Of a DNA stretch of 42,110 bases, positions 23,995 through 33,521 are shown piece after piece (position 1 is the stretch's first letter; each line of letters begins with the position of its first letter). Below the pieces are notes generated by a model. That model did no database searches and was not told the DNA's origin. It was given only the letters and a program-made list of their open reading frames with translations. The stretch lies in IMG/VR virus record IMGVR_UViG_2541047875_000007, positions 1-42,110 of that record. The stretch is one strand, 5' to 3'. The position numbers were made by a program, and so were the translations under genes. Source of the DNA: a virus (Duplodnaviria; Heunggongvirae; Uroviricota; Caudoviricetes).

Positions 23995-24036
23995 TATCAT
24001 GCCGTTAATATGTTGCCATCCGTGGCAATCATGCTG

Positions 24037-24660
24037 CTAACGTGTGACCGCATTCAATATGTTGTCTGCGATTGACTCTTCTTTGTGGCATTGCACCACC
24101 AGAGAGTCATACAGCGGCTTAACAGTGCGTGACCAGGTGGGTTGAGTAAGGTTTGGGATTAGCATCGTTACAGCGCGATATGCGGCGCTTGCTGGCATTC
24201 TTGAATAGCCGACACCTTTGCATCTTCCGCATTCTTTCTCAACAACTCTCCCCCACTGCTCTGTTTTGGCTATATCAACCGCACGGCCTGTACCGTGGCA
24301 ATCTCTGCATCTTGCGCCCGGCGTCGCGGCACTACGGCAATAATCCGCATAAGCGAATGTTGCGAGCACTTGCAGTACCTTTGCCTTAGTATTTCCTTCG
24401 AGCTTTGCCACACCACGGTATTTCCCCGATACCTTGTGTGCAAATTGCATCAGATAGTTGATAGCCTTTTGTTTGTCGTTCTGGCTGAGTTCATGCTTAC
24501 CGCAGAATGCAGCCATTCCGAATCCGGCTTGTGATTGTGCCATCCCCATAGCAGCCATCACATCAGTACCGGAAAGAGAGTCAGACGCCGTGGCCCGTGG
24601 TGAGTCACTCATCATCGGGCTTTTTGGCGAATGAAATTTAGCTACACTTTCGAGTCTCAT
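24037..24660 (-). CDS. Q: Late antiterminator Q (lambda-type)
   Basis: 207 aa, MRLESVAKFHSPKSPMMSDSPRATASDSLSG...CRDCHGTGRAVD... essentially identical to lambda Q from memory. Confidence 0.95.
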   Translation of the reverse strand: MRLESVAKFHSPKSPMMSDSPRATASDSLSGTDVMAAMGMAQSQAGFGMAAFCGKHELSQNDKQKAINYLMQFAHKVSGKYRGVAKLEGNTKAKVLQVLATFAYADYCRSAATPGARCRDCHGTGRAVDIAKTEQWGRVVEKECGRCKGVGYSRMPASAAYRAVTMLIPNLTQPTWSRTVKPLYDSLVVQCHKEESIADNILNAVTR

Positions 24661-24845
24661 GGTCTACCCCTCTTGCCCTGTTTGACCATCAGGACGCCGT
24701 TAACTATTACGTGACGCTCACCTTTGCTGTCTCGGTTGTACTTGAGCACTGTTCCTCTTGCGCAGGAAAGCATCCTCGCCACTTCGGTCTGATTGCCTCG
24801 TGTCTGGATAAGAAGCTCTGGTATCGTTTGAATTGTGGCGTTCAT
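24657..24845 (-). CDS. ninH: NinH-like protein
   Basis: 62 aa, ...GNQTEVARMLSCARGTVLKY...VIVNGVLMV resembles lambda NinH. Confidence 0.7.
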   Translation of the reverse strand: MNATIQTIPELLIQTRGNQTEVARMLSCARGTVLKYNRDSKGERHVIVNGVLMVKQGKRGRP

Positions 24846-25204
24846 ACGTTCTCCAGTTCGGTGATTTTTATTCCAAGCCTTCCGCCTGGTACTTTCACAC
24901 CACGAATTACGCGAATGTCATCGAATTGCTCGTCGTCTTCCGCAAATCCGGCGTGGATAAGTGAGTCGAGTAAACCTTTCAGGATGTTGTCGAGGTCGCG
25001 GCGGCGGGAGTCTGGAACGTCTGCGATGACTTTGATACGGAGTCGTGATTTGGTAAAAATGTCTAACTTGAGTTGGCGGATGATTTTCTGAACGTCTTTT
25101 CGGTATTTCTGGCCTTTATCGCTTATGTAATATTGGCTTCCCCGTCTTCGCCAGTAGGTATTCAGCGACGGTGGGTATGGAAGTACAAACTGATATTCGT
25201 TCAT
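24842..25204 (-). CDS. rusA: Holliday-junction resolvase RusA
   Basis: 120 aa; LPYPPSLNTYWR...DRRRRDLDNILKGLLDSLIHAGF...GGRLGIKITE matches the RusA family. Confidence 0.9.
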   Translation of the reverse strand: MNEYQFVLPYPPSLNTYWRRRGSQYYISDKGQKYRKDVQKIIRQLKLDIFTKSRLRIKVIADVPDSRRRDLDNILKGLLDSLIHAGFAEDDEQFDDIRVIRGVKVPGGRLGIKITELENV

Positions 25205-25491
25205 GGCTTAATCTTCCCCTCCTTCAGCAGTATCGCCTGCGTCCTGATCACGCCTTCGAGGTGGTAAAGTCTGGCGTCTTTGTTGTCGAGAATCCGGGTG
25301 CGTCGGTCGATCTCCGCGTGGCAGTCACTACAAGCCCATGCGCAGATCAGGTCGTCAGGCTTCATTCCCGTTCCGCAAATTCCAGCCATCCGGTAATGTG
25401 CCAGAACTGTAGTTTCAGGATTACCATTGCATACGCCGTAAATACGTACCTGGCATTCTCTTCCGCGCGCTTCTTTGCGTAGGTTAGCCAT
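25201..25491 (-). CDS. YbcO-like protein (DUF1364; putative nuclease)
   Basis: 96 aa with Cys/His cluster (CQVRIYGVCNG...CAWACSDCH); sits immediately upstream of rusA like ybcO in DLP12. Confidence 0.6.
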   Translation of the reverse strand: MANLRKEARGRECQVRIYGVCNGNPETTVLAHYRMAGICGTGMKPDDLICAWACSDCHAEIDRRTRILDNKDARLYHLEGVIRTQAILLKEGKIKP

Positions 25492-25696
25492 TTACCTTCC
25501 CTCGCAATTGAAGAATTGACTGAAGGTCTTTTTTAATAAATATGCGAGTGCGAATTGAGCAGTAGTTTTCCTTCATTCTGGCGTAGTAATAGTCTTTTCT
25601 TTGCTTAAGCTTGTTGGCATCCGCTGTCATCCAGTCTTTTACAGCAAACTTAATTAACCAGCGGTGGTAGAGATACCATTTCAGGTAATCATTCAT
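25484..25696 (-). CDS. Hypothetical protein (70 aa)
   Basis: ORF in the coupled nin gene string; no family recognised. Confidence 0.5.
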   Translation of the reverse strand: MNDYLKWYLYHRWLIKFAVKDWMTADANKLKQRKDYYYARMKENYCSIRTRIFIKKDLQSILQLRGKVNG

Positions 25697-25865
25697 CGTC
25701 TTCTTCCTCGTACATTGAGCTATTCGGATCGCTCATCAGTTCTGCACAGCAGTGCTCACACACGTGAACTTCCAGCACATGCAGCTTCTGACCGCAGTTA
25801 GCGCACGTTAAAGCCCGCTCGACGCTTTCTTTCTGGTATTGAATGGATTGGGATGGGCTAAGCAT
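25689..25865 (-). CDS. ninF: NinF-like protein
   Basis: 58 aa from ATG 25865 (the track's ORF begins at an upstream TTG); [58 protein letters not shown] matches lambda NinF. Confidence 0.8.
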   Translation of the reverse strand: MLSPSQSIQYQKESVERALTCANCGQKLHVLEVHVCEHCCAELMSDPNSSMYEEEDDE

Positions 25866-26808
25866 TAACAACCTCCATACAAACTTTCACGAATGCCGTT
25901 GCTACTTCTGCATTGATTGCGTTTCCATATCCAATAATTCGCTGATCTTGATTGCGCTTTGCCATTCTTCCCAGTGTGGACTTGCCTCGTCCCAAGCTTT
26001 TGGCAATGCCATTAACCATCGGGAATGAGCCGGGTCTAACTGGACGATATTTTTCATCTCTACAGTAAAGCCAGTCTGCATCTCTCCAGAAGCCGTTAAC
26101 CGGTAATGGGTACATAGCTTCACCGTCCCGGGAAGTTTCAAGCAGATTCTTGGGGTTCCGCTCTTGTCTTTTCCGCTGTAGCAATGCGTTGAACCTGTTG
26201 CATCGTTCGCTAAAGGAGTTTGCCATCCCGCTAGTCTCACGCATCCAGATAGGTTCTGAATTCCCCTGCGCGTCTCTGGCTGAAAGTTGATATTTGTCGT
26301 TGGAGTAGGCCACCCAATACAATCGCTGCCTAATGTGCGGAGAACCGAAGCCCGCAGCGCAAATATCGGTACCTGCAGAGGTGTAGTTCGCACCTTCCAA
26401 GTCAGTTTGTACAAGGTCGAGCCAAGCGAGGCCGTCTGCGCTTGCAACCTGTTCGCCAATAACGATGCCAGGATTGCATTTTTCAATAAGCCAGAAGAAT
26501 GCCGGCCATAAGTGCCGCTCGTCATCAACCCCTTTTCCTTTGCCTGCCGAGCTGAAAGGTTGGCATGGGCAACTTCCTGTCCAGATACTCTTGTTGTCTG
26601 GCCATCCTGCTTTTCTAAGTGCATAGCTCCAAACTCCGATTCCTGCAAAAAAGTGGTGCTGGGTAAATCCTCGCAAATCACCTGGTGTGACATCTTCAAT
26701 ACTCCTTTCATCTACATAACCGGGGGCAATTTCTCCAGCGTCAATTAAGTTACGCAGCCATTGCGCTGCATACGGATCTATTTCGTTGTAATACGCAGTC
26801 ATCGTCAT
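25858..26808 (-). CDS. DNA cytosine-5 methyltransferase (orphan; no adjacent restriction endonuclease)
   Basis: Motif I FFAGIGV and motif IV catalytic [13 protein letters not shown]. Start is either ATG 26808 (overlaps the ninE stop) or ATG 26802 (GAGGAA 8 nt upstream). Confidence 0.85.
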
Positions 26809-26981
26809 TTCCTCGCACGATGTCTTAGCCACCGGATATCCCACAGGTGAGCCGTGTAGTTGAAGGTTTTTACGTCAGATTCTTTTGGGATTGGCTTGCG
26901 TTTATTTCTGGAGCGTTTCGTTGGAAGGTATTTGCAGTTTTCGCAGATGATGTCGGTGAAACTTCGTCGCTGTCGTCTCAT
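26805..26981 (-). CDS. ninE: NinE (58 aa); missed by the ORF track because under 60 aa
   Basis: Translation [58 protein letters not shown] matches lambda NinE; ATG overlaps the ninB stop (ATGA). Confidence 0.8.
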
Positions 26982-27388
26982 TCGTACCTCCTGTCGGTAA
27001 ATCTGACACCCTGACCAATAGCCCAGGCTGTTGTGTACTCAATCAGACTTGCCATACGCTTCACACTCATCTGCGCGCTGCTTTCGCGGATGTTGACGTA
27101 TTCGCCTTCAAGCCCGGGCAAAACATCAGCTTCCTGCTTTGTTGCCACTGCATGACCGCTGATCAACAAAACCTTCCATTGTTCTGGTTTTAACCATTTA
27201 TCGCGCCACTGAACTTGCCTGGCGATATCTGCGACCATCGCGTGAAATTTTGCGTTCTGGTCAAGATTTCGCTTGTAGTCAGTAATGCGGATGGTGACTG
27301 GCTTGTCTTTATCGAGTGGTGTTGCGAGGATGGCGTTGATTGCGGCTTGCTGTTGTTGCTTACTCCTGAGGAAAATTGTCTGTTTCAT
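26978..27388 (-). CDS. ninB: NinB recombination protein (Orf family)
   Basis: 136 aa; ...[25 protein letters not shown]... resembles lambda NinB. Confidence 0.85.
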
Positions 27389-27396
27389 GGAATTCC

Positions 27397-27609
27397 TCAG
27401 TATGCGTAAAGGCTGTATCCATTTTTATTTGTCCTGGTGCCATAGCCATATAGGCTCCAGCCATCCTGTTTTCTCTCACCAAAAATATGCTTGCGGTATT
27501 CTTCCTGCTGGCGTCTCCATATTTCCATCATGTCTGGCTGGTTCTTTTCTCGCATTTTTCGGATCTGCTCAAGGATGAACTCTATTTGCTGCTGATTTGT
27601 CATGCTCAC
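27397..27609 (-). CDS. Hypothetical protein (70 aa)
   Basis: ORF between the helicase and ninB; no family recognised. Confidence 0.5.
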   Translation of the reverse strand: MSMTNQQQIEFILEQIRKMREKNQPDMMEIWRRQQEEYRKHIFGERKQDGWSLYGYGTRTNKNGYSLYAY

Positions 27610-27613
27610 TCCT

Positions 27614-27829
27614 TCACTTTAAATCCAGGTTCCGGATAATTCTGTCACACTGAAAATCAGTATCGATTTTAACCAACCGGCGAAGAACGCGGTCACGCGG
27701 ATAGCTCCGTGGCTTAGGGGCGTTTTTCTGTCTCTCGCCAGTCGGAAGTCTGGAAGCAGACCAGTACCGCTTTGCACGACCAATGTTCTCCTGAAAGTCG
27801 GCGCGGACAAGCTCAGCTATCGTACTCAT
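27614..27829 (-). CDS. Hypothetical protein (71 aa) at the lambda ren position
   Basis: ATG overlaps the stop of the upstream 30-aa ORF; basic protein, no family recognised. Confidence 0.5.
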   Translation of the reverse strand: MSTIAELVRADFQENIGRAKRYWSASRLPTGERQKNAPKPRSYPRDRVLRRLVKIDTDFQCDRIIRNLDLK

Positions 27830-27918
27830 TTCTTAAAGCCTCCAATTACTCTCCCCCAAATAAAAAGGCCTGCGATTACCAGCAGGCCTGTTATTAGCTC
27901 AGTGATGTAGATGGTCAT
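27826..27918 (-). CDS. Putative 30-aa hydrophobic peptide, translationally coupled between the helicase and the next gene
   Basis: [30 protein letters not shown]; ATG overlaps the helicase stop (ATGA) and its stop overlaps the next ATG; not in the ORF track. Confidence 0.4.
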
Positions 27919-29291
27919 ACGTCAGCCCCTTGTGCATATCGTCTGCCACGCGCAGCAGGTGCATTTGATGCTGTGCAAATCTGTCTGGCTTCATCCTGGT
28001 CACATGCAACAAAGTGTCCGTTGCAGAACCGCTGGTAAACCGTACCAAGTGAGCCAAAACGGTTTTTCGTCACAATGATTTCAGCAAATGGCGCGGCGCT
28101 ACTGTTCTCGTCATATACAGCTTCCCGATAGAGCATGATGATTGAGTCTGCGTCCTGTTCAATGCTTCCTGAATCACGCAAATCTGCGTTTGTCGGGCGT
28201 TTGTTTGGTCGCTTCTCAACATCGCGCGAAAGCTGACTCAGGGAGATAACAGGCGTTTTCAGGTCTTTCGCCATCGCCTTCAGGCTTCCGGAGATGTGAG
28301 CAATTGCGAGGTCGTTGCGATCTGCTTTCGGCTTCTCAATCAGGCCAAGATAATCCACCATGATGAGTGACAGGTTTGGATTTTCCTGTTTGTGCCGTTC
28401 TGCGATTGAGCGTATTTCTTCGACCGATAACCGCGAGGCATCGACTACCCATACATCCAAATCTGCAAGCTGACTCATGCCGTTAGCAACGCGCGCCCAG
28501 CCTTCGTCATCCATCGATGCAGGATTTCGCAGCACACTAACCGACATCCTCCCGGCGTTGGCAATACTTCGCTCTGCAATCTGCAATGCGCTCATTTCCA
28601 TTGAGAAAATCAACACTCCGCGCCGGACGTCAGAACCAGGAATAACGCGGCTTGCAACGCCTTCGGCAATCTTCAGCGCCAGTTCGGTTTTACCCATACC
28701 GGGACGAGCGGCGATAATCACCAGGTCTTCTGCGTTCATCCCTCCGGTGATGGCGTCAAGTTCGTCGATTCCGGTCTTCAGGGTATCTGACTCTTCTCCG
28801 TTCCTCAGACGCCTGTCAAGCGTGTCAGTGTAGTCAGTGATGATTTCCCCTAACCGTACCGGTTTAACCTCGTCACGGGGCTTTCTGATGGCTGAAAGAC
28901 GCTTTACAAGTTCATCCATCGCCTGACTCGATGCGTCGATGGTTCCGCTCTGAATTGGTTCACGCATTTCATCCATGATTTCCAGCACCAGACGGCGGTG
29001 ATAGTTATCCGCGACCATTCCGGCATATCCCTTCAGGTTTGCGGCACTCGGGCAGTTTTTGCTGGTCATCAGGATTGACGTGAAATGCTCCTCTCCGCAC
29101 GCCTCGGCAACCATCAGCGCGTCGATTAAATTTCTGTTTCGCGCCTGCTTGCGGATAACCTCGAAGGCTTTCCGGTAGAGCGGAATTGAAAACGCTTCCG
29201 GCTCCAGCGTTGCCAGAACGTCGCTGGCGGTTGGAGTTAATCCACCAATCAGCAGGCCACCGATAACGCTCGCTTCGATATCCTGTCTCAT
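27915..29291 (-). CDS. Replicative DNA helicase (DnaB family; P22 gene 12-like)
   Basis: 458 aa; Walker A GMGKTE, DnaB-type motifs, typical DnaB N-terminal domain. Confidence 0.9.
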
Positions 29292-30235
29292 GCAATCCCC
29301 CTGTCTGCAAACTTCCCTTCCCGTACTCCCGTTAACGAATCTTCCCTCAACAGGTAATCAAAATCAGCCGTCCAGCCCGTGTCGTTGTCTCCGAAGTAAA
29401 ACGGCTTGGCCTGATGCACAAACGCCCTGACATACGCTCTGAAACCGTCCACGTTTGGCGTTTTCAGTTGCGGGATGATTTTCTTCAGGCGGCGTTTGCG
29501 TTTCTCGTTGACTGCAACAGCATGTGGAAGTCTGTCACCGACTTCGGTGTTGTAGGCGTTCAGGAAGGATTCGTAGTCGATTCGTTCTGCCTTGCGACGT
29601 TCAGGTTTAACCTGCCCATCGCCGCCCCCATTGGGGGGTAGGGGGGTATTATTTATATTCTTGTTAATACCTTCTTGTTCATGATGTGCGGTTGTTTGTG
29701 CGGCTTCATGTGCGCTTTCATGTGCGGAATGTGCGCTGAAAGCTGCGCCATTACTGGCTTCGTCATGTGCGGCATCATGTGCGGTTGTTTGTGCGGCATC
29801 ATGTGCGGGTAAATTGTCCATTTTTTGAGCATATTCATGGTAATTTGTGATGGTGATCACACGACCTTTTTGCTTCTCTCCATCAATGGAGATCATCCCT
29901 TCTTTCACAAAAACCTGAAGCATCCGCTCAACCTGATCACGGCTTGCTGGCTTGCCATGTCTGTCGCATAACTGAAGACCTAAATCAGCTGCTGTCACAA
30001 CCAGTTGACCGGGTTGCAGATGCCATTCATGACCTTTGAAATTCGCTTTGTATGGCTTTCTGGCGGCATTCAGGAGAAGGTTTTCCCACAGGGTGCGAAG
30101 ATAAACATCTTTCGCCCATGACTGTTTCAGAATGCTCCGGTACAACGGAATGTAACCAGTTTTCTGGTTCTCCATCCTGTTGCTCCTGCGCTCGTGTGCG
30201 GCGCTGAAATCGTAGATTTTTGCTGTATTGCTCAT
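29288..30235 (-). CDS. Replication initiator (lambda O / P22 gene 18-like) with internal His/Ala-rich low-complexity linker
   Basis: 315 aa; N-terminus [10 protein letters not shown]... resembles the lambda O N-terminus; linker [40 protein letters not shown] is encoded by the iteron repeats. Confidence 0.8.
29646..29810 (-). repeat. Putative origin of replication: about 9 direct repeats of a TGTGCG(G/C) core inside the initiator gene, flanked by an AT-rich segment (29646-29672)
   Basis: Repeats at roughly 10-12-bp spacing (CATCATGTGCGGTTGTTTGTGCGGC occurs twice); adjacent TATTATTTATATTCTTGTTAATACC; arrangement parallels lambda ori within O. Confidence 0.6.
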
Positions 30236-30237
30236 AA

Positions 30238-30510
30238 CTACCTGCCTTGACGAAAGACCTTAAGAACATCGTTAAACTGACTTACGGATATGTCTTCTTT
30301 GAGAAGCTTTTCCAGAAATGCGTTTGGAATGAACGTATATCCCTCCTCTTTTGGTAGAGACGGGAGCAACGCCCTCGCCTCAGCCTTCAGAAGCTCAGTT
30401 CTGGCAACTTTCACAAAAGAGATTTGAGTTCTTTCATCAATGGAACGAAGGAAGCGCAAACGCTTAGCTTCTTTGTGTGTATCAGGTGGATTAAAGCCTT
30501 TGTTTCGCAT
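30238..30510 (-). CDS. Hypothetical protein (90 aa) between cII and the replication initiator
   Basis: ORF-track ORF 30238-30783 trimmed to ATG 30510 (GAGGT 7 nt upstream); the upstream part of the long ORF overlaps cII in another frame. Confidence 0.55.
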   Translation of the reverse strand: MRNKGFNPPDTHKEAKRLRFLRSIDERTQISFVKVARTELLKAEARALLPSLPKEEGYTFIPNAFLEKLLKEDISVSQFNDVLKVFRQGR

Positions 30511-30532
30511 ATAATTACCTCGTTGGATGTTG

Positions 30533-30826
30533 TTAAAATTCCATTTGTATTTGATCAGAACGCTCGGTTGCCGCCGGGCGTTTTTTATTGGTGAGAATCG
30601 AAGCAACTTGTCGTGCCAATCGAGCCATGTCGTCGTCAACGACGCCCCATTCAAGAACAGCAAGCAGCATTGAGAACTTTGGAATCCAGTCCCTCTTCCA
30701 CCTGCTGATCTGCGACTTATCAACTCCCACAGCTTCCGCTGTCTTCTCAGTTCCAAGCATTGCGATTTTGTTAAGCAACGCACTCTCGATTCTTAGAGCC
30801 TCGTTGCGTTTGTTTGCACGAACCAT
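30533..30826 (-). CDS. cII: Transcriptional activator CII (lambda-type)
   Basis: 97 aa from ATG 30826: MVRANKRNEALRIESALLNKIAMLGTEKTAEAVGVDKSQISRWKRDWIPKF... matches lambda CII. Confidence 0.95.
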   Translation of the reverse strand: MVRANKRNEALRIESALLNKIAMLGTEKTAEAVGVDKSQISRWKRDWIPKFSMLLAVLEWGVVDDDMARLARQVASILTNKKRPAATERSDQIQMEF

Positions 30827-30905
30827 ATGTAAGTATTTCCTTAGATAACAATTGATTGAATGTATGCAAATAAATGCATACACCATAGGTGTGGTTTAAT
30901 TTGAT

Positions 30906-30937
30906 GCCCTTTTTCAGGGCTGTGATGTGTAAGAGCG
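30906..30937 (-). promoter_or_regulatory. nutR: boxA (30930-30937) and boxB (30906-30920)
   Basis: Minus strand CGCTCTTA ... GCCCTGAAAAAGGGC, identical to remembered lambda nutR boxA/boxB; immediately downstream of cro. Confidence 0.8.
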
Positions 30938-30945
30938 AGAATGTC

Positions 30946-31161
30946 TTAAGCGGCTTTGTGTTCCGGCGGGAACACGTCATCAAGACTGACTTTTGCGCCT
31001 AACTTGTTTAGGCACTCAACAAGAGCACGGCATGTTTTAAGGTCTGGGAAGCGACGACCAGATTCCCAATGTCCGATAGCTCCCTGTGTGCATCCAACTG
31101 CCTTAGCAAGTGTTGTTTGAGAGATATTCAGTGACTCTCGATATTTTCGTAGGTTGCTCAT
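30946..31161 (-). CDS. cro: Cro-like repressor (HTH, XRE family)
   Basis: 71 aa from ATG 31161 (GGAGG upstream); helix-turn-helix ISQTTLAKAVGCTQGAIGHWESG; divergent from cI. Confidence 0.8.
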   Translation of the reverse strand: MSNLRKYRESLNISQTTLAKAVGCTQGAIGHWESGRRFPDLKTCRALVECLNKLGAKVSLDDVFPPEHKAA

Positions 31162-31273
31162 ATGCCCTCCATAGTAACCATGAAACAATAATACGATATG
31201 TACTTTTAGAATGCAAACAAAAAAATACATCTTGTGCATGGATGGTTTTAGTACAGAGCGTAATAATAATGGT
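31162..31273. promoter_or_regulatory. OR region: PR (minus; -35 TTGCAT at 31211-31216, -10 TATTAT at 31188-31193), putative PRM for leaderless cI, and two copies of a 12-bp operator motif (31192-31203, 31251-31262)
   Basis: Motif GTACA-N3-CGTA occurs at the PR -10/spacer (reverse orientation), near the PRM -10, and again at PL (32072-32083). Confidence 0.6.
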
Positions 31274-31933
31274 ATGAAAATGAAATGGTATGAACTGGCT
31301 AGATCCAGAATGAAAGAGCTCGGCATAACTCAAGAGAGGTTAGCTGAAGAGCTTGGTATGACGCAGGGTGGAATTGGTCACTGGTTGCGCGGATCTCGTC
31401 ATCCATCTCTTGACGAGATTGGTGTGGTGTTTAAATACCTTGGTATTGATAACGTCTCATTCAACCACGACGGTACATTTTCACCTGTTGGCGAATACTC
31501 TCTGCCCCCGTTAAAAAAACAATATGAGTACCCTGTTTTTTCTCATGTTCAGGCCGGGATGTTCTCGCCTGAGCTTAGAACCTTTACCAAAGGTGATGCG
31601 GAGAGATGGGTCAGCACAACCAAAAAAGCCAGTGATTGTGCGTTCTGGCTTGAAGTTGAAGGTAATTCCATGACCGCGCCAACAGGATCCAAGCCAAGCT
31701 TTCCTGACGGGATGTTAATTCTCGTTGACCCTGAGCAGGCTGTTGAGCCAGGTGATTTCTGCATAGCCAGACTTGGTGGTGACGAGTTTACCTTCAAGAA
31801 ACTGATCAGGGATAGCGGTCAGGTGTTCCTACAGCCACTAAACCCGCAATATCCAATGATTCCATGCAATGATAGCTGTTCCGTAGTAGGGAAAGTTATC
31901 GCCAGCCAGTGGCCTGAAGAGACATTTAGTTAA
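31274..31933 (+). CDS. cI: CI-type prophage repressor (HTH plus LexA-like S24 peptidase domain); start uncertain (ATG 31274 or 31280)
   Basis: [28 protein letters not shown]; C-terminal S24 features (AG cleavage-site context, GNSM, and a Lys-containing DEFTFKKL segment). The track's upstream ATG 31211 lies inside the PR -35. Confidence 0.85.
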
Positions 31934-31963
31934 CAGCCTCACAACTCTAAAATACACAACAAT

Positions 31964-31993
31964 AACCCGACCTTAGCGTCGGGTTTTCTTTTT
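31964..31993 (+). terminator. Intrinsic terminator downstream of cI
   Basis: AACCCGAC-CTTAGC-GTCGGGTT hairpin followed by TTTCTTTTT. Confidence 0.6.
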
Positions 31994-32058
31994 CCAAAAT
32001 ATAAACCCATTAAATACAAAGCGTTATAAAAAACTAATTATATTTAGAACATTTTGTA

Positions 32059-32094
32059 TTGACTCAATAAAGTACAAATCGTACTATTTAGCCA
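32059..32094 (+). promoter_or_regulatory. PL promoter with overlapping OL operator (32072-32083)
   Basis: TTGACT - 17 bp - TACTAT, then ATCAGCAGGACGCACT matching the remembered lambda PL transcript start; operator GTACAAATCGTA in the spacer. Confidence 0.7.
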
Positions 32095-32125
32095 TCAGCA
32101 GGACGCACTAACCACCATGAAGGTG

Positions 32126-32156
32126 AGGCTCTTAAAAATTAAGCCCTGAAGAAGGG
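32126..32156 (+). promoter_or_regulatory. nutL: boxA (32126-32133, GGCTCTTA) and boxB (32142-32156, GCCCTGAAGAAGGGC)
   Basis: boxB identical to remembered lambda nutL boxB; boxA differs from CGCTCTTA at one position. Confidence 0.85.
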
Positions 32157-32340
32157 CGGCATTCAAAGCAGAAAGCTTTGGGGTGTGGTGAAGCTCAACG
32201 GCGAGCTAGGGAATAGTTTTGCGGTGAAGATTCTAGACAACTAACCGCAGGATGCGCGTAACCCAATCGGCAGCGCACCGATGGAAGCTGGTTCGACTCC
32301 AGCCACCACACCACCAAAGCTAACTGACAGGAGAATCCAG

Positions 32341-32667
32341 ATGGATGCACAAACACGCCGCCGCGAACGTCGCGCAGAGAAACAGGCTCAATGGAAAGCA
32401 GCAAATCCCCTGTTGGTTGGGGTAAACGCAAAACCAGTTAACCGCCCTATTCTCTCGCTGAATCGCAAACCGAAATCACGAGTAGAAAGCGCACTGAATC
32501 CGATAGACCTTACGGTGCTGGCTGAATACCACGAACAGATTGAAAGCAACCTGCAACGTATTGAGCGCAAGAATCAGCGCACATGGTACAGCAAGCCACG
32601 CAGTGAAATGGGTGTGACTTGTGTTGGTCGCCAGAAAATGAAATTAGGCAGCAAACCACTTATTTGA
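32341..32667 (+). CDS. N: Antiterminator N (lambda-type)
   Basis: From ATG 32341: MDAQTRRRERRAEKQAQWKAANPLLVGVNAKPVNRPILSLNRKPKSRVESALNPIDLTVLAEYHEQIES... matches lambda N including the Arg-rich motif. Confidence 0.95.
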   Translation: MDAQTRRRERRAEKQAQWKAANPLLVGVNAKPVNRPILSLNRKPKSRVESALNPIDLTVLAEYHEQIESNLQRIERKNQRTWYSKPRSEMGVTCVGRQKMKLGSKPLI

Positions 32668-32675
32668 GGTGATAT

Positions 32676-32864
32676 ATGGAACGTAAATTTGAAATTTGGT
32701 TGGATTCCGGCGCAAACATTCATTCTTGCAAAAAGACAGTTGTAACACTCGATGATCTTGGCTTATCCGAGAATGAGTGGAATGAAATGGATCAGGACGA
32801 AAAAGACGAAAACATGCGTGATGTAGCATTTGAAACGCTTGATTGGGGATGGAAGGAAATTTAA
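32676..32864 (+). CDS. Hypothetical acidic protein (62 aa) immediately downstream of N
   Basis: ATG with GAGGTGA upstream; no family recognised. Confidence 0.6.
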   Translation: MERKFEIWLDSGANIHSCKKTVVTLDDLGLSENEWNEMDQDEKDENMRDVAFETLDWGWKEI

Positions 32865-32869
32865 GTGAT

Positions 32870-32895
32870 GGCCGCATAGTCGGCCTTTATTTTTG
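32870..32895 (+). terminator. Candidate intrinsic terminator in the early-left operon
   Basis: GGCCG-CATAGT-CGGCC followed by TTTATTTTT. Confidence 0.5.
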
Positions 32896-32916
32896 GCATA
32901 AACAACAGAGGCTAAC

Positions 32917-33213
32917 ATGGAATTTAAAGGTACTGAAGGTAAGTGGGAAATAATGATGGATGGCGATGAGATTAAAATCATCCAGGCAGACTCACTTGAA
33001 AATGGCGCAGGCTGGCGTTCGTATATTGCAATCTGTGAGGAAGTTCAATGCATTGAAGATGCCAATCTAATAGCGGCAGCACCTGACCTTCTCGAAGCAC
33101 TTCAGTTATTACTTAAGCAAACCAAAAATAGAACAACGACAACATATCCAGAATGGTATGGAGCTGTTAATAAAGGTCTCGCAGCAATAAGAAAAGCTCT
33201 TGGGGATAAGTAA
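32917..33213 (+). CDS. Hypothetical protein (98 aa)
   Basis: ATG with AGAGG upstream; no family recognised. Confidence 0.6.
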   Translation: MEFKGTEGKWEIMMDGDEIKIIQADSLENGAGWRSYIAICEEVQCIEDANLIAAAPDLLEALQLLLKQTKNRTTTTYPEWYGAVNKGLAAIRKALGDK

Positions 33214-33401
33214 TGAAAGTAAAAATAACTGCTTCTAATACCAGTTTTGTTAGTGTTGGTGATATTACAGAAGTAATAACAAACCATGATGGAACACAAG
33301 TTATGTGGTCTGATTTTTGTAAAAGATATGAGCGAGTCACTTGGTGTAAACTCGTATGGGGCGTCGAATACGAAGAATTACCTGAAATGCATGACGAATA
33401 A
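33213..33401 (+). CDS. Hypothetical protein (62 aa)
   Basis: Start overlaps the preceding stop (TAATG). Confidence 0.55.
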   Translation: MKVKITASNTSFVSVGDITEVITNHDGTQVMWSDFCKRYERVTWCKLVWGVEYEELPEMHDE

Positions 33402-33404
33402 GCA

Positions 33405-33432
33405 CTGTGTATTCATTCCAACGAGTGAATAC
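33405..33432 (+). repeat. Perfect 9-bp inverted repeat with 10-nt loop
   Basis: GTGTATTCA-TTCCAACGAG-TGAATACAC read directly from the sequence. Confidence 0.5.
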
Positions 33433-33496
33433 ACGGAGCAATGTCGCTCGTAACTAAACAGGAGCCGACTTGTTCTGATTATTGGAAATCTTCTTT

Positions 33497-33521
33497 GCCC
33501 TCCAGTGTGAGGGCCTTTTTA
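33497..33521 (+). terminator. Candidate intrinsic terminator upstream of the cIII-like gene
   Basis: GCCCTC-CAGTGTG-AGGGC followed by CTTTTTA. Confidence 0.55.

Follow-up and report, generated by a model that had tools for sequence, protein, structure and literature searches.

In this work we analyzed three small coupled open reading frames (ORFs) located between the replicative helicase gene and ninB of a lambda-like prophage, contained in a stretch of 42,110 nucleotides (nt) (IMG/VR record IMGVR_UViG_2541047875_000007, Caudoviricetes) that is referred to here as the window. The first of these frames, of 30 codons, is ninA, an element that has been known, together with its name, since 1982, and the intrinsic transcription terminator tR2 lies within its coding sequence; Kroger & Hobom (1982) are credited with naming ninA and with describing the ATGA-linked chain. 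The explanation that we consider very probable for the locus as a whole combines a ninA gene that carries tR2, downstream genes whose expression would be gated by the antiterminator N, coupled translation, and optional cargo genes. The main features are:

27826-27918, minus strand: ninA, 30 codons plus stop (ORF; phrog_5907, E=5e-17).
27858-27889, minus strand: tR2, intrinsic terminator located by a terminator scan, spanning ninA codons 10-21.
27849-27918, minus strand: block of 70 nt (ATG...GGGGGAGAG) that comprises ninA codons 1-23, tR2 and the G-rich Shine-Dalgarno sequence of the next gene.
27915-29291, minus strand: gene for a DnaB-type replicative helicase of the P22 gene 12 type (phrog_19, E=1e-136; Pfam DnaB_C and DnaB; RefSeq "replicative DNA helicase").
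27614-27829, minus strand: DUF7301 gene, 71 amino acids (aa) (PF23975, phrog_1785).
27397-27603, minus strand: phrog_18758 gene, 68 aa (E=8e-44).
26978-27388, minus strand: gene for the NinB/Orf recombination mediator, the first canonical nin gene (Pfam NinB, E=5e-53).

The assignment of the 30-codon frame is based on its match to the NinA profile phrog_5907 (E=5.2e-17, with residues 1-26 aligned to positions 1-26 of the 27 in the profile) and on its layout, which is that of P22, lambda, phage 21 and HK620: a short ORF overlaps the stop codon of the last replication gene, stands ahead of the nin genes, and has tR2 embedded in its coding sequence. The helicase gene ends with GAC GTA TGA, and the ATGA at 27915-27918 (minus strand) is shared with the ATG of ninA; this gene in turn ends with AAA TGA and shares the ATGA at 27826-27829 with the ATG of the DUF7301 gene. 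Both overlaps had been proposed in an initial annotation made from the sequence alone, and both are confirmed here. The 68-aa gene starts 10 nt past the stop of the 71-aa gene, and ninB starts 8 nt past the stop of the 68-aa gene. The same annotation presented the short frame as an overlooked peptide; this is true for RefSeq, where the 30-codon ORF carries no annotation in the prophage of Escherichia coli FDAARGOS_1256 (NZ_CP069451.1) that is 100% identical to the window, but the ORF is the already known ninA, annotated in the records of HK620, P22 and mEp506, and included in that of phage 21 as an "Orf26-like" coding sequence (CDS).

Absent from that first description was the tR2 hairpin inside the ORF. 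Its stem (AGGCCTGC/GCAGGCCT, 27866-27889) has 8 base pairs (bp), six of them GC, and encloses a loop of 8 nt; the U-tract TTTTATTT follows directly at 27858-27865, and the hairpin alone has a folding energy of about -15.1 kcal/mol. Hairpin and U-tract are identical to those of lambda, P22, HK620 and phage 21; the record of HK620 labels the identical hairpin "tR2" inside "ninA", and that of phage 21 has a "terminator" inside the Orf26-like CDS. The location of tR2 between the replication genes and the nin region is also that of lambda, and the window shows no difference from lambda tR2 at the sequence level. A termination efficiency of ~0.9 has been reported for lambda tR2 (Li et al. 2016, PMC4824070).

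The 70-nt block that contains these elements is shared by phages whose flanking sequences are unrelated. In an alignment of the window with lambda, P22, HK620 and phage 21, the segment from the hairpin to GGGGGAGAG is invariant and only a few differences occur before the hairpin; the identity of the whole block to lambda and phage 21 is 98.6-100%. The lambda copy of the block is flanked by ren and ninB, and there an unannotated 26-codon ORF after ren has its first 23 codons identical to those of the window ninA, whereas the ninA genes of P22 (26 aa) and HK620 (27 aa) differ from it over these 23 codons only by I9V. In all three phages, as in the window, the start of ninA overlaps the preceding stop, tR2 is inside, and the stop overlaps the next start. 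With 30 codons against 26-27, the window ninA is the longer one because the gene that follows it is the DUF7301 gene and not ninB: its last seven residues (VIGGFKK) are encoded by the ribosome-binding region of the DUF7301 gene, overlapping the GGAGG. As in P22, ninA directly follows the helicase gene, without ren between them. The exact window variant of ninA was found in four records in all, including the window and its own RefSeq copy, and one more locus has it with I9V. The block itself is very common, since at >=95% identity it is present in 2052 of 5426 complete E. coli genomes (~38%), with up to six copies per genome. When 13 RefSeq records were inspected, a CDS other than those of the neighbouring genes was annotated on the block in one, and a terminator feature in none. 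The ninA/tR2 block was also looked for in the renD region and around ylcH of the DLP12 prophage of E. coli K-12, and it is not present there. In DLP12, emrE lies directly after a disrupted renD, and ylcH (33 aa), which overlaps ybcN by ATGA, is unrelated to NinA (L255:4249-4315 and L255:8369-8470).

The window also contains the elements of the antitermination system that would act on tR2:

30906-30920, minus strand: nutR boxB (GCCCTGAAAAAGGGC), of the exact lambda type, in the same rightward operon and upstream of tR2.
32143-32157, plus strand: nutL boxB, of the exact lambda type.
32281-32667, plus strand: gene for a lambda-type N antiterminator (MDAQTRRRERRAEKQAQWKAAN...), identified from the ORF translation.

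The two boxB matches compare with 0.01 expected by chance in the window, and the product encoded at 32281-32667 is recognized as a lambda-type N protein. N antitermination is the established way past tR2. According to the mechanism that we propose, unmodified RNA polymerase would stop at tR2 (~27858-27865) and polymerase modified by N at nutR would read through it; everything downstream of tR2 as far as Q, including the DUF7301 and 68-aa genes, ninB and the other nin genes, would therefore be delayed-early and N-dependent. Ribosomes leaving the helicase gene would re-initiate at the overlapping ATG of ninA, and on the read-through transcripts they would cross the terminator region and finish precisely where the next gene has its ATG; in this way ninA would be a link in a series of nin genes coupled by ATGA overlaps. 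The first nine codons of ninA would, in addition, keep the stop codon of the helicase gene 25 nt from the hairpin. In lambda tR2 constructs, a stop codon at a short distance repressed the terminator almost completely; when the natural upstream sequence was used, the termination efficiency was ~0.8 at 18 bp and ~0.9 beyond 30 bp (Li et al. 2016, PMC4824070). A bidirectional terminator or an antisense RNA were considered as other readings of the hairpin, and nothing above chance was obtained for them; a search of positions 24000-33500 against Rfam gave no relevant match.

Several lines of evidence indicate that the ninA frame is likely to be translated. The comparison was made on 119 IMG/VR loci collected through the exact hairpin and 120 collected because they have the first 21 nt of ninA but then continue in a non-canonical way. 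The initial annotation had proposed that the 30-codon frame be looked for in relatives, and it is conserved in more than 230 related loci (Buttiauxella and Dryocola, described below, have the terminator without the ORF); the 124 hairpin-anchored sequences, with five exceptions, have it open from the same ATG. Two ribosome-binding motifs were read from the sequence of the window, one for ninA and the other for the gene that follows it:

27926-27931, minus strand: AAGGGG, Shine-Dalgarno-like, 7 nt before the ninA ATG and within the last codons of the helicase gene.
27839-27843, minus strand: GGAGG, Shine-Dalgarno sequence of the DUF7301 gene, within the tail codons of ninA.

A Shine-Dalgarno 4-mer is found at -16 to -5 of the ninA ATG in each of seven unrelated upstream contexts, of which the helicase end present in the window is the commonest; the background frequency of 8.5-12% gives a p of ~3e-8 to 3e-7. 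At the other end, at least 12 different genes can come after ninA, and its stop codon is placed at -23 to +6 nt relative to their start codons; most of these junctions are overlaps of the ATGA or GTGnnTGA kind. Twelve distinct substitutions were counted in codons 2-10, which are outside the hairpin and were not fixed by the hairpin search; seven of them are synonymous, where 23% would be expected (p=0.009, a test that ignores shared ancestry), and the remaining five (two of I to V and one each of I to M, T to A and T to S) are all conservative. In the natural lambda sequence, the NinA initiation site halved the expression of an upstream reporter, an effect that was attributed to non-stop messages; mutation of the ribosome-binding site or the AUG restored the expression, and the NinA site was judged "not weak" (Li et al. 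2016, PMC4824070). Translation is considered likely because the open frame, the Shine-Dalgarno sites, the stop/start coupling, the substitution pattern and these reporter data point in the same direction, and the peptide sequence itself appears to be weakly under selection.

A different view is that the 30 codons are not a gene, and that an accidental open frame runs over a terminator or a recombination "linker" that is conserved only as DNA or RNA. The block is indeed ~100% identical at the nucleotide level between phages with unrelated flanks, as a cis element or a recombination joint would be; RefSeq does not call the ORF, the terminator occurs without it in distant relatives and in HK022-type loci, and the natural upstream sequence alters the termination efficiency in its own right. 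We consider this view very improbable, given that an accidental frame would not account for a Shine-Dalgarno sequence after all seven unrelated upstream genes, for the same-ATG frame that stays open in nearly all the hairpin-anchored loci, for a stop that coincides with the next start whichever of at least 12 genes comes next, for the third-position and synonymous bias, or for the altered expression of the upstream reporter when the lambda NinA ribosome-binding site or AUG was mutated.

A second alternative accepts translation and assigns to ninA the role of a leader-peptide-like regulator, either through ribosomes that tune tR2 by melting the hairpin without N, or through non-stop messages that are cleared by transfer-messenger RNA (tmRNA) and lower the expression of the replication genes. 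In favour of this alternative, tR2 is located 30 nt past the AUG and is complete ahead of the stop codon, and terminated transcripts would consequently lack a stop; the upstream stop codon, 25 nt from the hairpin, is within the range where the position of the ribosome affects termination. Against this alternative, N is the established route past tR2, and the relatives without the ORF manage without it. Regarding the reporter data, expression was reduced to about half with an active NinA start and restored by mutation of the ribosome-binding site or AUG, the reduction being attributed to non-stop decay, as this alternative would predict; however, this was measured on a plasmid reporter and not in the phage, and translation from the NinA start, with tR2 located 30 bp after the AUG, cut the termination efficiency by only ~10%, which argues that melting of the hairpin is weak (Li et al. 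2016, PMC4824070). On balance, a leader-like role as the main explanation seems unlikely to us.

The properties of the peptide raise the question of whether NinA itself is the point. The frame is predicted to encode a hydrophobic micropeptide with a single helix, in agreement with the initial annotation; its best 19-residue window reaches a Kyte-Doolittle value of 2.04, and only ~6% of the 147 small ATG-initiated ORFs in the window reach 1.6. The loci compared include three nucleotide versions of the frame:

Lambda type (lambda, P22 and the window): canonical tR2 inside the ORF; Kyte-Doolittle value of the best 19 residues 2.04.
HK97 type (HK97, HK446 and mEp506): the first ~10 codons are the same, followed by GAIYTVALFYWIK..., with a different hairpin inside; Kyte-Doolittle value 1.52.
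HK022 type (HK022 gp56): the first ~10 codons are the same, followed by LSLLMVLTVYIIKYILYANKKTN, with no hairpin (-0.9 kcal/mol for the same span); Kyte-Doolittle value 2.19.

HK97 gp56, HK446 gp46, the mEp506 "NinA" and HK022 gp56 share with the window ninA the first 10-11 codons (MTIYITE[LI]I[TA]G), the location after the helicase or P gene, and the hydrophobic character. Unlike the window, the HK97 type has its own terminator hairpin (GGGGCUAUU/AGUAGCCCU followed by U6), for which a variant with a compensatory change of U-A to C-G was found (comparison locus L141). In HK022 (L136:11-115 and L136:700-750), the N-terminus of ninA continues as a different hydrophobic ORF of 34 aa and the canonical tR2 is found ~690 nt further on, after an inserted gene of 203 aa; approximately 20 IMG/VR loci are so arranged. 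In rare variants the frame is joined to the gene that follows: in L141:993-1400, ninA with the hairpin variant runs in-frame into a gene of ~100 aa, and P0020 is a NinA-DUF7301 fusion of 101 aa. Between loci, the C-terminal tail of NinA varies freely in length and charge.

That three nucleotide versions encode a hydrophobic helix hints weakly at selection for the helix. The hint is weak because F/L/I and G/A/L codons are what a U-tract and a GC stem tend to yield in one of the two open frames (another reading frame of the hairpin region reads QACW*, stop included), and because the HK022 tail is AT-rich DNA and the C-terminal tail is merely the ribosome-binding region of the next gene. These considerations apply directly to the possibility that NinA is a single-pass membrane toxin, an exclusion factor or a host-directed effector on which the terminator is superimposed. 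A hydrophobicity that is rare among the small ORFs of the window, changes before the hairpin that are mostly synonymous and otherwise conservative, hydrophobic helices that persist in the HK97 and HK022 types with other nucleotides (in HK022 even without a hairpin), and a ribosome-binding site in all seven upstream contexts would agree with an effector. On the other hand, the peptide has no match in PADLOC or NCBIfam; the tail is whatever the next ribosome-binding site encodes; the hydrophobicity could be largely a by-product of the U-tract and the GC stem codons, and in the HK022 tail the AT-rich composition may favour I/L/Y/K/N codons. Moreover, in Buttiauxella and Dryocola the terminator is present without any ninA start codon, and single loci fuse the frame to a downstream gene. 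An effector of this kind is, in our judgement, an improbable primary explanation.

As to the toxin or exclusion activity that the initial annotation had suggested for such peptides, a comparison of the three small proteins with PADLOC and NCBIfam yielded no match at E <= 1; these searches give no support to either activity for any of the three ORFs. In published descriptions, ninA is one of the nin genes that can be deleted, the region as a whole being non-essential. One promoter-like site was found on the opposite strand, where the chance mean is 1.8. More speculatively, NinA could be a selected single-pass membrane micropeptide overprinted on tR2, which would be completed only on transcripts carried through by N, while the terminated messages, lacking a stop codon, would be tagged through tmRNA and degraded, trimming the expression of the replication genes. 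We regard this idea as improbable; if true, the NinA peptide, whose function has not been assigned by 40 years of work on lambda, would report the switch from early to delayed-early expression and at the same time act on it.

To return to the explanation that we favour, a ninA gene that carries tR2, the terminator is, in the sequences compared, the more deeply conserved feature of the two. A NinB-anchored scan of species-representative genomes yielded eight loci, among which Buttiauxella brennerae (L130:2636-2681) and Dryocola sp. (L131:1947-1992) have a homologous terminator, AGGCUCGC...GCGGGCCU followed by U6 (-13.5 kcal/mol), that differs from that of lambda by one compensatory swap in the stem, from a T-A to a C-G pair, and by one wobble pair. 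Its position is that of tR2, with the replication and ren-like genes upstream and the nin genes downstream.

A number of observations weigh against the proposed explanation. In Buttiauxella and Dryocola there is no start codon for the ninA frame and the TAA of the upstream gene abuts the hairpin; likewise, in the HK022-type loci the TAA of a different gene, that of 203 aa, is directly against the canonical hairpin. The HK620 annotation itself leaves ~200 nt between ninA and ninB, and coupling is therefore not required everywhere. The substitution test, with its 12 distinct changes and its neglect of shared ancestry, is a small one, and the 29 nt that precede the hairpin could be conserved for reasons at the RNA level instead. 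In this regard, the natural upstream sequence by itself raises the efficiency of tR2 at short distances, and the conclusion on the NinA start rests on the reduced expression of an upstream reporter (Li et al. 2016, PMC4824070). Finally, termination and read-through in this prophage are properties that we infer from its identity to lambda.

The two genes that follow ninA are best described as optional cargo of the nin region, ordinary members of families without an assigned function. The 71-aa protein is basic, as initially annotated, with an isoelectric point of 10.6 and 17 K+R against 9 D+E, and it is a full-length DUF7301 protein (PF23975; 85.9 bits against a cut-off of 27, E=2e-24) that also matches phrog_1785. 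The relatives of DUF7301 amount to 31 database matches, all from Escherichia, Shigella and Salmonella; a YPRDRVL motif is invariant in the 71-aa protein and 16 homologues, and the AlphaFold model has three predicted helices, with a predicted local distance difference test (pLDDT) score of 78. Homologues are encoded in 40 of the ~240 loci that contain ninA, always between ninA/tR2 and ninB.

A third ORF does follow, as was proposed, but the 70 aa first assigned to it are obtained only if it is read from the GTG at 27609. We consider it to be 68 aa long, from the ATG at 27603, because the Shine-Dalgarno spacing fits this start (AAGGAG at 27609-27614 is 5 nt before the ATG) and both the PHROG profile and RefSeq begin there. 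The match to phrog_18758 is full-length (E=8.1e-44), residues 3-70 of the longer reading being aligned to positions 1-68 of the 68 in the profile. The 19 relatives of this protein are confined to prophages of Escherichia, Shigella and Salmonella, and its AlphaFold model consists of a helical hairpin and a disordered Tyr/Gly-rich tail (pLDDT 69). The gene is present in 5 of the ~240 loci with ninA, always in the order DUF7301, 68-aa gene, NinB. Foldseek searches at E<=0.001 gave no match in PDB for the DUF7301 model or in BFVD for both models, profile searches of the PDB sequences with the two small proteins returned nothing relevant, and a literature search on DUF7301/PF23975 found no paper.

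The initial annotation had also placed the three ORFs at the position of ren, and this was not sustained. Lambda Ren shares with the 71- and 68-aa proteins only the general neighbourhood, that of a small gene placed after the replication genes and ahead of ninB; in lambda, ren is upstream of ninA/tR2, whereas the DUF7301 and 68-aa genes are downstream. In a BLASTP comparison, neither of the two proteins gave an alignment with lambda Ren at E <= 100. The possibility that they are Ren homologues was rejected on account of this lack of similarity and of their location downstream of tR2, with nothing between the helicase gene and ninA.

With regard to its setting, the locus belongs to a rightward early operon encoded on the minus strand, whose order is cro, nutR, cII, the O-like initiator, the DnaB-type helicase, the three ORFs, and ninB, on to a Q-like antiterminator. 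In the RefSeq annotation of NZ_CP069451.1 the early part reads as LexA-type repressor, HTH/cro-like gene, cII, a hypothetical gene, replication protein and helicase; after the helicase come DUF7301, the 68-aa hypothetical gene, NinB, NinE, a cytosine methyltransferase, NinF, RusA, NinH and an antitermination protein. The DNA cytosine methyltransferase gene, so named in RefSeq, is an insertion into the nin region (25858-26844, minus strand), flanked by NinE and NinF. Within the O-like replication initiator gene, at 29678-29820, a unit containing CATGTGCGG is repeated at a spacing of 12 nt, and these repeats are probably the iteron array of the origin. The base composition of the region is unremarkable.

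The understanding of lambdoid early transcription is unchanged by these results, and their significance concerns mainly the annotation of genomes, in which a very common element usually goes unlabelled, so that a reading of the bare ORF can make it look like a hidden toxin. They also provide a case in which one stretch of DNA holds both a protein frame and a terminator, and the sequence comparisons suggest that the peptide frame of ninA is more than an accident.

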